A DNA stretch of 64,000 nucleotides from an uncultured Eggerthella sp. (GCA_900540345.1 UQFK01000001.1:215386-279385); one strand, 5' to 3'; counted from the stretch's first letter, positions 317 through 7,036 are shown. Program-made: numbers and translations. Notes: generated from the letters alone by a model not told the origin.

Positions 317-1972
317 CTATCGTTCTTCCCATGCATAGCGTGCTGCTCCCAGAGCACCACAGAGATCAGGTGATTCGGTGATGAAGAGCGAATCACCTAG
401 ACGTGATTCGAGTTCCTGCACGACACCTGTATTACGTGCAACACCGCCCGTCATCATGAAGGGCGCTATGCCACGTGCACGCTTCACCATTGATGCGGTC
501 TTCGATGCGATGGACTTATTTAGTCCATGCACGATATCATTATCAGAGTGATTGTCAGCAATGAGTGAGATGACTTCCGATTCCGCAAAAACAGAACACA
601 TACTAGAAATAGTAAGATCGCACTTCCAATCAAGACCACGTGTCGACATCTCGTCCATATCGAGCTCGAGCGAGCGGGCCATCATCTCAAGAAAACGACC
701 TGTACCAGCAGCACACTTATCATTCATGATGAAATTCGAGACCTCGCCTGTCTCATCGAGACAGATGACCTTGCTATCTTGTCCGCCTATATCGACGATA
801 GTGCGGATCGCGGGGTTAAGGTAATGTGCACCATGAGCATGACAGCTGATCTCGGTCTTGGTGTCTGTTGCAAACGGAATATTATCACGACCGTATCCGG
901 TAGCCATAATAGCCGCGAAATCTTCCTGCGCAGCATCGAGCTGATCGCATACTGCTTCGAGCGCCTCGCGCGCGCCACGTTCTGCTTTTGGACCGGTACG
1001 CACGATCGCACTTGCAACTATTGTTCCTTCTGCATCGAGAACAACCATATTCGTCGTGGTAGAACCACTATCGATTCCGGCGAAATACTTTCCTTGCATA
1101 ATGATCGCTTTCTCTTTTCTCTGTCTTGTGGCAAGACCCATGCTCTCCGAGAATGCCTCGAGGCGCGTAGAGAGTTGACCTGATGCCATAGGCATATAAT
1201 CTGATTCGATCTTGAGCATCGGCAGTGCAGTCGCATCCTTGAGCATCGCATAGTCAAAGCTATAGAAATCACAGAATTTCACTGTGTTGTAGATGATGCC
1301 CTTTAAATGAGGGTTCTCAAATAGCACACGACGACCGCTCACATCGGTCATGCGCATACATGGTACTTGACGCAAAAGCGCATAAGCATACCATTCCATA
1401 AGCTGCTCGAAGTCGAGATCATGTGCATTTTCAGGCAACGCTTCAAGACTGCGACTACCACAACACGTCAGATTGACAACGGCAAGACTCATCCCTTCAT
1501 CGATCGAGCGCTGAAGTTGCGGGCTGACACGACCACCTAAGAGCGCGATGAAATCTTCATGAGGAAATTCCCAGGTAGCTTCTGCACAAGCGGCGAAGAA
1601 GCGTTCTTTATCGAAGGGCTTGCCACTCGAAGCTTCCAGATCACGAGCCAGCGCAATGATCGCACTTGCAAACAATTCGCGCGCGCATCCATTGTTCTCG
1701 TGCGGAAGATCGAGCATATAGAGATGCTTCTGATTCCCTTCAAAATCGAGTACATCATAAACGCGCCGCAGTGAATCGCAGCAGTCCATGATAAGGACCT
1801 CGCTCTTATCGAGGCTTTGCTGAATGAGCGACTTCGCATGACAACAAAGATTCGCGTGCGTGAGCGACTCGGCACGCTCGAAATTCTCTTCCTCAGCATC
1901 AAGCAGCACTACATCGTGCCCAAATGCTGCGAAAAGTTCGATAGGGGCATATTTGCAGCTGTAATGGATCAT
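317..1972 (-). CDS. Fusion protein: HgdB-like (HGD-D family) N-terminal domain plus HgdC/BadF/BcrAD-type ATPase activator C-terminal domain.
   Basis: The C-terminal half has activator motifs (GIDSGSTTTNMVVLD, DIGGQDSKVI, MNDKCAAGTGRFLE). The N-terminal half has Cys-rich dehydratase-subunit-like sequence (YAPIELFAAFGHDVV, MDCCDS). The track ORF runs to 2152, but an in-frame ATG at 1970-1972 overlaps the upstream stop as ATGA, so the start is placed there. Confidence 0.7.
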   Translation of the reverse strand: MIHYSCKYAPIELFAAFGHDVVLLDAEEENFERAESLTHANLCCHAKSLIQQSLDKSEVLIMDCCDSLRRVYDVLDFEGNQKHLYMLDLPHENNGCARELFASAIIALARDLEASSGKPFDKERFFAACAEATWEFPHEDFIALLGGRVSPQLQRSIDEGMSLAVVNLTCCGSRSLEALPENAHDLDFEQLMEWYAYALLRQVPCMRMTDVSGRRVLFENPHLKGIIYNTVKFCDFYSFDYAMLKDATALPMLKIESDYMPMASGQLSTRLEAFSESMGLATRQRKEKAIIMQGKYFAGIDSGSTTTNMVVLDAEGTIVASAIVRTGPKAERGAREALEAVCDQLDAAQEDFAAIMATGYGRDNIPFATDTKTEISCHAHGAHYLNPAIRTIVDIGGQDSKVICLDETGEVSNFIMNDKCAAGTGRFLEMMARSLELDMDEMSTRGLDWKCDLTISSMCSVFAESEVISLIADNHSDNDIVHGLNKSIASKTASMVKRARGIAPFMMTGGVARNTGVVQELESRLGDSLFITESPDLCGALGAARYAWEER

Positions 1973-3252
1973 GCGCGCAACGCTTCTAACTGCTCGATAA
2001 AGGCATTCATGCGCGTGACCATCTGGCCGTCTGCTACGTTGCGAGAATCGCATCCATCGCCATCTAACACGAGCGTAGGCAAGCCATGCTGCTCGAAATA
2101 ATGCTTTGCAAGCTGAGAGATGCCAAGCGTCTGCTTGCAACCCCAGTGGCAAAATACCACTACACCATCGGCATGAGCATTACGCGCTTGCTCAAGCGCT
2201 AAGGCAAGACGGTGCTTCGCAGGTCCGTTCATAGAGCCACACACCAAACGACGTGCCATGCTCTCGAAAGGATGATCGGGATCAGGAAGTTCTATCGATT
2301 CAACAGCAATATCGGTACCCACCAGCTCGCAACCAGGAGCCGCATCAAGAATCTCACGCATAGAGTCTTGCCAATTTGGAAGCGTATGGATCCAAAAAAG
2401 ACGAATCTTTTCATTACGACCTGCAGGTAGCGCACGCTCGCTCGCTTTGAGTATCTCTTCCATGAACTGCAACGCCTCAGGACGTCCAAGCATGATATGG
2501 GTCGAGATCATAGCACAGAGTTCGCTGGTCATAGTGGTATCGAGGCTGACCTTACCGCGCAACGCGAGCGCGCGCTGATAGGTCTCGATGGTCTTACGTG
2601 AATTCACCATGGTCTCGCGCAACGCAAGCGCATCGAGTCTGCGATGTGAAAGATCTTCGAGCATTGCTGCAAGTTCATAGAGCTGATCGGTTACATAAGC
2701 GATCGCATCGTTATCGGCCGCGTTCGGAACATCGATAACATAGTGAGGCACATCGTAGAAGTTCGCGAGACGTGGAAAAGAGAGCTGATTCGCATCGCAG
2801 ATAAGCGTTGTGTTCGCAATCATGAGCGGTTTGGGCATTACTCCTGTTTCCGCAACCCCTATCATGAGCTTATGATATGAACAGAACGTCTCGGCAATGT
2901 CGTGAGCTTCCGATGCCTCGACGAACACTTCCTCGCACGCTGTATTGGCGATATAGGCCGATAAACCTTCGGGAAACATCGGGACAAGACCCATCGCATG
3001 AATGATCTCGCATGGCATGAAGATGTTGACCATAACTGCGTTTTCAGGATAACGGAACGAATCGACGATCGTGCCAGCGATACCACCGTTCACGCGCTCG
3101 GTCGCTGCCCGAACGGAAAGCGGCCGAGGAAACTTTCCTGCAAGATGAACCCAGGAATAGGTAGCCATGAGCAGTCTACGCGCCGATTCTGGCGACGTAA
3201 GCGTCTGCTTCTGAATGATCTGACCAAGTTTTTCAACGACCGATGAAGTCAT
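1969..3252 (-). CDS. 2-hydroxyacyl-CoA dehydratase alpha-like subunit (HgdA/HadB family).
   Basis: 427 aa with a C-terminal CHWGCKQT motif and overall resemblance to HgdA. AAGGAAA RBS upstream. Its stop overlaps the next gene's start. Confidence 0.72.
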   Translation of the reverse strand: MTSSVVEKLGQIIQKQTLTSPESARRLLMATYSWVHLAGKFPRPLSVRAATERVNGGIAGTIVDSFRYPENAVMVNIFMPCEIIHAMGLVPMFPEGLSAYIANTACEEVFVEASEAHDIAETFCSYHKLMIGVAETGVMPKPLMIANTTLICDANQLSFPRLANFYDVPHYVIDVPNAADNDAIAYVTDQLYELAAMLEDLSHRRLDALALRETMVNSRKTIETYQRALALRGKVSLDTTMTSELCAMISTHIMLGRPEALQFMEEILKASERALPAGRNEKIRLFWIHTLPNWQDSMREILDAAPGCELVGTDIAVESIELPDPDHPFESMARRLVCGSMNGPAKHRLALALEQARNAHADGVVVFCHWGCKQTLGISQLAKHYFEQHGLPTLVLDGDGCDSRNVADGQMVTRMNAFIEQLEALRA

Positions 3253-3260
3253 TGTTTCCT

Positions 3261-5906: not shown

Positions 5907-5947
5907 GCATGCTCCTTCTTTTGTAGATGAACTAATCGCTTGCGAGA

Positions 5948-7036
5948 TCAAGCTTGCAGGACGCGAACAACTTCATTGGTGAACTCGGTGCAAGTTGCAG
6001 CGAGCGCATTCGAGCTTGTTGCTTTACGAATATCAGCTGTGAGCACCTCACCTTCAGCATAGACGGTACGAACTGCATCGCGAATCTTACGTGCGATATC
6101 GAGTTCGCCCAGATGATCGAGCATCATTGCTGCAGAAAGAATCTCAGCTGTAGGGTTACAGATATCTTTACCTGCAATATCAGGTGCAGAACCATGGACC
6201 GCTTCAAAGATCGCATACTCAGGACCGATATTAGCGCCTGGAGCAATACCGAGACCGCCAACCAAGCCAGCACAAAGATCGCTTGCAATGTCGCCATAAA
6301 GATTCGGGAAGACGATGACCTCAAATTGCGAGGGATCCATAACGATATTCATGCAAAACGCGTCAATAATGTTATCGCTAAACTCAATGGAGGGATGCTC
6401 TTCGGCGACCTCACGCGCAACAGCTAAAAACAGACCATCAGAGTGTTTCATGATGTTTGCTTTATGCGCGGCAGTAACTTTCTTGTAGCCCTGCTTCTCG
6501 GCATAATCGAACGCATACTCCACGATATTGCGCGATGCGGTCTTCGAGATTGGCTTGATGGAGATACCGGAATCCTTACGAATGGTACCTGCACCTTTCT
6601 CTTTAATGAACTCGATAAGATCAAGTGCATCAGGTGTTCCCTCTTCGAATTCGATGCCAGCGTAAAGATCTTCAGAGTTTTCACGTACGATGATGAGATC
6701 AACATCTTCATAACGCCCGCCTGCGCCAGGAATAGAGAGCACAGGGCGCAGGCATACGTTCAAGTCGAGTGCCTGGCGAAGCGCAACGTTCACACTGCGA
6801 AAACCGGTGCCAACTGGCGTGGTGACCGGTCCTTTGATAGCAACTTTGTTCTTGCGAACCGCATCAATAGTCGATTGTGGTAGTGGCGTGCCATACTCTT
6901 CCATGAGATGAGCACCTGCTTCGGCGATCTCCCATTCGATATCTGCCCCTGCTGCAGCAACCACACGCTGCATAGCTGCAGTGGTTTCTGTACCAATACC
7001 ATCGCCCGGAATGAGCGTGACCGTATGTTTTGCCAT
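5948..7036 (-). CDS. icd: Isocitrate dehydrogenase (isocitrate/isopropylmalate dehydrogenase family, 362 aa).
   Basis: Family motifs ([21 protein letters not shown]) and a position immediately upstream of acnA. AAGGAGAG RBS. Confidence 0.8.

Follow-up and report, generated by a model that had tools for sequence, protein, structure and literature searches.

In a 64-kb stretch of DNA from an uncultured Eggerthella sp. (GCA_900540345.1 UQFK01000001.1:215386-279385; the whole stretch is called the window below), a pair of adjacent genes stands directly behind icd and acnA on the minus strand. The first gene of the pair (1969-3252; 427 amino acids, aa) encodes the alpha protein, which resembles HadB and BzdO and is read as the catalytic subunit of an ATP-dependent Fe-S radical enzyme. 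The second (317-1972; 551 aa) encodes a fusion of a beta domain and an activase (ATPase) domain. The pair is most probably a self-contained two-gene insertion behind icd-acnA, with two functionally independent modules standing side by side. Its sequence puts it in the 2-hydroxyacyl-CoA dehydratase / benzoyl-CoA reductase / double-cubane-protein superfamily, as a so far uncharacterised member. Because the unit is self-contained and lies beside icd-acnA in one genus only, the adjacency is no pointer to a new route of the citric acid cycle. The operon is not read as a new pathway; the pair itself is widespread and represents an uncharacterised form of ATP-driven Fe-S radical enzyme.

Distribution and neighbourhood of the gene pair

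The scan covered one genome per species. At least 553 loci encode a relative of alpha. The best 80 were taken together with their flanking DNA, at most 10 kb on a side, and the window proteins were compared with them by tblastn. Icd, acnA and a HEAT-like gene are found beside the pair in only 7 of the 80 loci (L001-L006, L012). These belong to Anaerotardibacter muris (GTDB genus CAG-1427) and to metagenome-assembled genomes labelled 'uncultured Eggerthella sp.'; all seven fall within the Anaerotardibacter/CAG-1427 group, and their alpha is at least 82% identical to that of the window. No icd or acnA was found in the other 73 loci, even at E < 0.01; an upstream flank of at least 4 kb was available in 47 of them, and a downstream flank of at least 4 kb in 49. 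Synteny in related genomes, the test that the original prediction had set itself, thus fails outside a single genus-level clade. Literature on Anaerotardibacter was found on taxonomy only.

Alpha of the 73 loci is 42-64% identical to that of the window. Hosts are Oscillospiraceae, Lachnospiraceae, other Eggerthellaceae, Atopobiaceae and Spirochaetes. The family as a whole is one of strictly anaerobic bacteria of gut and digesters. In most of these loci alpha is followed by the fusion, usually joined by the same ATGA overlap as in the window. Paralogues of the pair and extra copies of icd or acnA were not found in the window or the loci. The alpha profile matches 392 representatives of 50%-identity clusters at E ≤1e-30, among 1.84 billion. 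Database names of the alpha and fusion homologues are generic only.

In the 73 loci without icd and acnA, the neighbours of the pair represent about 290 Pfam families, none of which recurs. When neighbours within 3.5 kb were grouped into 275 distinct clusters, no family was present in more than four; MarR is found in 4, followed by MatE, ABC transporter, SLH and ThrE_2 in 3 clusters each. The genes directly upstream and directly downstream likewise match many different Pfam families. Five annotated contexts contain, respectively, TetR and phage-tail genes; a sugar ABC transporter and LacI; NAD biosynthesis genes and SbcCD; PlsY and a glycosyltransferase; a VanY peptidase and an ECF sigma factor. 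A conserved neighbour pointing to the substrate was sought by clustering of the open reading frames (ORFs) of the 80 loci, by Pfam and in the five annotated contexts; nothing recurs. Since the neighbours are unrelated between lineages, the pair is regarded as an autonomous two-gene unit.

A pair that stands alone in variable contexts would also be accounted for by a compact lipid-modifying enzyme that acts on acyl esters of membrane lipids by reduction, in the manner of the anaerobic plasmalogen synthase PlsA/PlsR or the glycerol ester reductase Ger. PlsAR is of the same superfamily and forms a stand-alone operon, in some species preceded by a TetR gene; the pair itself lies in some loci by PlsY and a glycosyltransferase, by TetR, by FakA or DegV, or by PlsC-type acyltransferases. 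In the wider survey, lipid genes do not recur as neighbours. PlsA and Ger carry two PF01869 domains and PF09989, whereas the fusion carries one PF01869 domain and gives no match to PF09989 at E ≤0.01. A lipid-modifying function is therefore judged unlikely.

Sister taxon and origin of the pair

The nearest AcnA outside the clade, among the matches listed, is 79% identical and belongs to a common Eggerthellaceae taxon (L093/L094; the sister taxon). Its contigs carry rpmG-secE-nusG-rplK-rplA, three extra genes, the HEAT-like gene, icd, acnA, a 261-nucleotide (nt) spacer and a gene for a 649-aa protein without Pfam family. Icd-acnA is present and the pair is absent. The spacer after acnA contains a terminator-like hairpin with a 12-bp stem. 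Flanking genes are orthologous between the window and the sister taxon. The HEAT-like gene lies directly upstream of icd in both (L093:5930-6532 in the sister; 69% identity), and in the Anaerotardibacter clade and the sister taxon the membrane-protein gene always follows acnA or, where it is inserted, the pair. The membrane protein (about 600-650 aa, no Pfam family) is encoded in full at L001:12891-14729 and L093:10908-12857, with 62% identity between the two; the N-terminus of the L001 protein matches window positions 302-1. With the flanks shared and the pair missing in the sister, the two taxa differ by an insertion or deletion of exactly the two-gene unit. In the organism of the window this unit stands in place of the sister's spacer.

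The pair was probably acquired laterally, most likely from Clostridia, and then inserted. Alpha of the clade is 61-64% identical to clostridial proteins and 46-51% identical to those of other Coriobacteriia. For alpha and fusion together, identity is 56-64% to proteins of Oscillospiraceae/Lachnospiraceae and 46-52% to those of other Eggerthellaceae. The neighbour-joining tree places the clade beside Oscillospiraceae/Lachnospiraceae; other Eggerthellaceae and Atopobiaceae are on a branch of their own. The contrast between an AcnA that is 79% identical to that of an Eggerthellaceae sister and a pair that is nearest to Clostridia is read as lateral acquisition of the pair.

Several points weigh against an independent insertion. 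The 80 loci inspected are a part of at least 553, and a subset linked to icd or acnA is possible elsewhere. The neighbour-joining tree is without support values. An alternative, though a less likely one, is that the sister lost the pair and the clade did not gain it. The acnA-alpha spacing is 8-9 nt in 6 of the 7 clade genomes, without a terminator, so that selection for co-expression with acnA is possible. The junction does vary within the clade: in A. muris the spacing is 107 nt (L002:9894-10000); this spacer contains an imperfect inverted repeat and gives no match to a consensus terminator or promoter.

In the original prediction, the pairing was taken to imply an undescribed route. In such a reading the pair, Icd and AcnA would share a pathway that the operon reflects: dehydration or reduction of a 2-hydroxy tricarboxylate such as citrate or isocitrate, or a 2-oxoglutarate/2-hydroxyglutarate-linked metabolism. 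Five genes spaced by 41, 8, -4 and 14 nt without a terminator-like site speak for such a route, and the arrangement is kept in 7 of 7 genomes of the clade. The same clade is also its limit: icd and acnA are absent in 73 of 73 loci outside it, the sister taxon keeps icd-acnA without the pair, A. muris has its long acnA-alpha spacer, and the pair appears clostridial in origin. The prediction itself had remarked on the lack of CoA-transferases and 2-hydroxyacid dehydrogenases nearby, and a Pfam scan of 45 ORFs in the 64-kb window detects none; a CoA-ligase was likewise not found in the window. A shared route is very unlikely on these grounds, and the claim is not upheld. Genes that are closely packed and translationally coupled in one genome give no evidence of a common pathway; a single comparison with a sister taxon settled the matter.

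Description of the alpha protein

The alpha gene is intact. PF06050 matches the protein across its full length (E 2e-68). HadB is the catalytic subunit of 2-hydroxyisocaproyl-CoA dehydratase. A profile built from 21 orthologues and run against PDB sequences scores 86 bits with HadB (full length), 56 with BzdO, 51.5 with MbdO and 50 with the double-cubane protein. In the AlphaFold2 model (predicted local distance difference test, pLDDT, 89) the nearest PDB structures are HadB (TM-scores 0.77/0.82) and BzdO (0.78/0.77); lower ranks in the fold search are taken by the double-cubane protein and the electron-transfer subunits.

Cysteines C124, C152 and C372, the canonical three-cysteine [4Fe-4S] site, are invariant in 73 of 73 orthologues and align with the catalytic [4Fe-4S] ligands C95, C128 and C380 of BzdO. 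A pseudogene, or a gene that has lost its cluster ligands, had been named as the finding that would overturn the prediction, and neither is the case. Four further conserved cysteines are specific to this family and absent in HadB: C401 (73/73 orthologues), C81 (72/73), C368 (64/73) and C106 (59/73).

Seven loci of Atopobiaceae and Coriobacteriaceae (L048, L053, L054, L062, L065, L072, L077) encode an alpha homologue of 45-52% identity, and the fusion is not detectable in the flanks available (up to 10 kb). The partner may be encoded elsewhere in these organisms, or alpha may work differently there. Seven sequences have glycine in place of C368, and most of them are probably from the same Atopobiaceae/Coriobacteriaceae branch. 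Some distant alpha relatives are much longer than 430 aa: P0455 (785 aa), P0475 (802 aa) and P0464 (684 aa). Of these, P0455 and P0475 carry the alpha-like part at the C-terminus, which points to other fusion architectures in the superfamily.

Description of the fusion protein

The fusion consists of a beta domain (residues 1-285; 1118-1972, minus strand) followed by an activase domain (residues 291-551; 317-1102, minus strand). Pfam matches are PF06050 at residues 152-278 (partial) and PF01869 at residues 299-547; TIGR00241 is matched with 236 bits (cut-off 125). The check by hidden Markov models proposed with the original prediction thus gives PF06050 in alpha and in the N-terminal half of the fusion, and PF01869 in its C-terminal half.

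The beta domain is a trimmed module of the BzdN or double-cubane-protein type. A profile built from 26 orthologues scores 77 bits with the double-cubane protein (6ENO/7YYL), 47 with HadC and 46 with BzdN. The fusion structure was predicted from an alignment of database homologues, and the fold search with beta gives the same order: double-cubane protein, then HadC, then BzdN. Cysteines C6, C43, C64(65), C170, C205 and C234 occur without exception in 60 of 60 orthologues. All six align with cysteines of the double-cubane protein and with C36, C73, C100, C263, C293 and C327 of BzdN, the published [8Fe-9S] ligands (ligand lists in PMC11971306 and PMC7317905). The beta domain matches the [8Fe-9S]-binding pattern and would be expected to carry a cluster of this type.

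The activase domain is of the HgdC/HadI type. It scores 218 bits with HadI (4EHT) and is 44% identical to HadI in the fold search. C377 and C420 are the predicted cluster ligands and are invariant among orthologues.

The dehydratase label first given to the pair is correct for the superfamily. It is not correct for the cysteine motif of the second subunit: in place of the HgdB-like three-cysteine motif, beta carries the six-cysteine double-cubane motif. By this motif the pair is at least as close to an ATP-driven reductase, of the BzdNO or double-cubane type, as to a dehydratase.

A genuine 2-hydroxyacyl-CoA dehydratase, with its CoA-transferase and dehydrogenase partners encoded elsewhere in the genome, is very improbable. 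The likeness is real in two places: alpha is nearest to HadB by profile and by fold, and the activase is close to HadI in sequence. It does not extend to the subunit families, where NCBIfam equivalog scores are far under their cut-offs (HadB 63 bits against 750, HadC 23.5 against 700). HadC is without the six-cysteine motif of beta, HadB is without the four extra cysteines of alpha, and no fermentation partner recurs beside the pair in the 80 loci. Least probable of all is an undescribed ATP-driven double-cubane reductase of minimal benzoyl-CoA-reductase build, acting on a substrate other than a 2-hydroxyacyl-CoA, an aromatic CoA ester or a membrane lipid and recruited in Anaerotardibacter to the icd-acnA operon for a metabolite of that branch.

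Proposed mechanism

Two independent modules, as preferred here, would have the following origin. The first module would comprise the HEAT-like gene, icd and acnA, vertically inherited in this branch of the Eggerthellaceae. It would form the citrate-to-2-oxoglutarate branch, presumably supplying the precursor of glutamate. The second would be the autonomous, mobile unit of alpha and the beta-activase fusion, nearly always joined by the ATGA overlap. Insertion would have taken place in the ancestor of the Anaerotardibacter/CAG-1427 clade, between acnA and the membrane-protein gene, and would have replaced the spacer in which the sister taxon has its acnA terminator. With this spacer region lost, co-transcription with icd-acnA is likely, and transcription from the icd-acnA promoter probably runs on into the pair.

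Fold, domain order and cysteine pattern are directly evident in the two proteins; cluster types and electron path are proposed by analogy with the superfamily. The activase domains of two fusion chains would dimerise, with a [4Fe-4S] cluster bridging them and C377 and C420 as its ligands. ATP hydrolysis would then drive a low-potential electron into the double-cubane [8Fe-9S] cluster of beta. From there the electron would pass to the open-coordination, three-cysteine [4Fe-4S] cluster of alpha, and the substrate would be reduced or dehydrated by radical chemistry. Such a subunit logic would correspond to BzdNO and BzdPQ compressed into two genes. The substrate of the pair, once found, would extend the short list of ATP-driven biological reductions at very low potential.

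Description of the locus

The ORF set read comprised frames of at least 190 aa, of which five fill positions 317-7744 on the minus strand. Icd, acnA, alpha and fusion are all intact and lie head to tail; the coordinates, order and superfamily-level identities of these four genes in the original prediction (icd, acnA, an HgdA-like gene and a fusion of HgdB-like and HgdC-type parts) are confirmed. The fifth ORF, upstream of icd and part of the vertically inherited block, encodes the HEAT-repeat-like protein (7142-7744; 200 aa). Its Pfam matches are weak and sub-threshold. The protein may be part of the icd-acnA unit.

Icd (5948-7036; 362 aa) encodes a beta-decarboxylating dehydrogenase of the isocitrate type. 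The PF00180 match is clear (E 2e-98); the top NCBIfam model, isocitrate dehydrogenase NF006529, falls short of its cut-off (395 bits against 510), and the substrate is assigned because acnA is adjacent. AcnA (3261-5906; 881 aa from ATG 5906) is aconitate hydratase A, with PF00330 and PF00694, NF006757 at 1172 bits (cut-off 686) and TIGR01341 at 1094 bits (cut-off 945). The likely start is ATG 5906, since 120 of 120 AcnA homologues listed are 881-892 aa long. A tRNA-Ser (anticodon cga) reported by ARAGORN at 4792-4886 on the plus strand, antisense inside acnA, has no Rfam match at the gathering threshold and is probably a false positive.

The spacing first described (41 nt with a ribosome-binding site, 8 nt, ATGA overlap) agrees with the junctions as read from the sequence. 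Icd stops with TGA at 5950-5948, and 41 nt separate it from the acnA ATG at 5906, which is preceded by AAGAAGGAG. The alternative ATGA overlap proposed for a long acnA start is not present: the long start is TTG, giving a TTGA overlap, and no ATG. AcnA stops with TAA at 3263-3261, 8 nt before the alpha ATG at 3252, and AAGGAAA overlaps this stop. Alpha and fusion overlap by ATGA at 1972-1969. The fusion stop is followed after 14 nt by the GTG start (302) of the membrane-protein gene (about 600 aa; 5' end at 1-302, minus strand), which runs off the window.

No terminator-like site is found at any junction from icd to the membrane-protein gene. A strong terminator-like hairpin with a 12-bp stem follows rplA (7841-7869, minus strand) and is taken as the upstream boundary of the likely transcription unit. 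The consensus scan for internal promoters gives 8 sites against 8.3 expected in shuffled sequence and is uninformative.

The locus lies in a housekeeping region that contains tuf, four tRNA genes, secE-nusG-rplK-rplA, adk, secY, fusA, panBC and guaA. About 15 kb from icd, at 22099-25173 (minus strand), an apparent four-subunit 2-oxoacid:ferredoxin oxidoreductase is encoded (POR_N and PFOR_II in 390 aa, TPP_enzyme_C in 319 aa, and ORFs of 117 and 190 aa). If specific for 2-oxoglutarate, it would connect to the icd-acnA branch. A flavin mononucleotide (FMN) riboswitch (RF00050, 118 bits) is present at 21718-21846 (minus strand), upstream of ribD, ribE and ribBA at 18532-21552.

Comparison with known systems

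PlsA/PlsR and Ger belong to the same superfamily and, like the pair, are self-contained units of one or two genes in scattered contexts of anaerobes. Two activase domains and PF09989 are present there, against one activase and two PF06050 domains in the pair. The two groups are set apart here by domain architecture.

The (R)-2-hydroxyacyl-CoA dehydratases HadBC/HadI (3O3M, 4EHT) and HgdAB/HgdC likewise combine a heterodimer of two PF06050 subunits with a PF01869 activator. They differ in that the activator is fused to beta in the pair and in that HadC has three cysteines where beta has six.

Class I benzoyl-CoA reductases (BzdNOPQ, 8S02; MbdONPQ, 9GAI) share with the pair a three-cysteine catalytic subunit, a six-cysteine electron-transfer subunit and an HgdC-type ATPase. 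They differ from it in having two separate ATPase subunits, against one fused ATPase domain here, and the pair has the extra alpha cysteines C81, C401, C368 and C106. The scores of TIGR03191 (42 bits, cut-off 449) and TIGR03192 (183 bits, cut-off 380) are far under equivalog level. No aromatic-degradation genes are found near the pair.

Among PDB entries, beta matches the double-cubane protein best, and DCCP with DCCP-R of Carboxydothermus hydrogenoformans (6ENO, 7YYL) is the characterised relative. Class III double-cubane proteins, which are common in Firmicutes, carry the six ligand cysteines without the seventh and contain their reductase in the same chain of about 550 aa (Jeoung, Martins and Dobbek 2020, PMC7317905). 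ATP-driven reduction of small molecules such as acetylene counts as a further mark of the class. The review describes class III fusions and does not mention a partner subunit. The fusion of the window is alike in length (551 aa), in joining the module to an ATP-dependent reductase, in the six ligand cysteines and in the absence of the seventh, non-ligand cysteine. It differs in that beta is without about 70 N-terminal and about 80 middle-domain residues of the double-cubane protein, and in that the fusion is nearly always paired with a HadB/BzdO-like alpha. The NCBIfam double_cubane model reaches 79 bits, far under its cut-off of 350. The family thus pairs a catalytic subunit like HadB or BzdO with a double-cubane fusion of class III type, and its near-constant partner and the stop/start overlap suggest a BzdNO-like heterodimer, not a homodimer.

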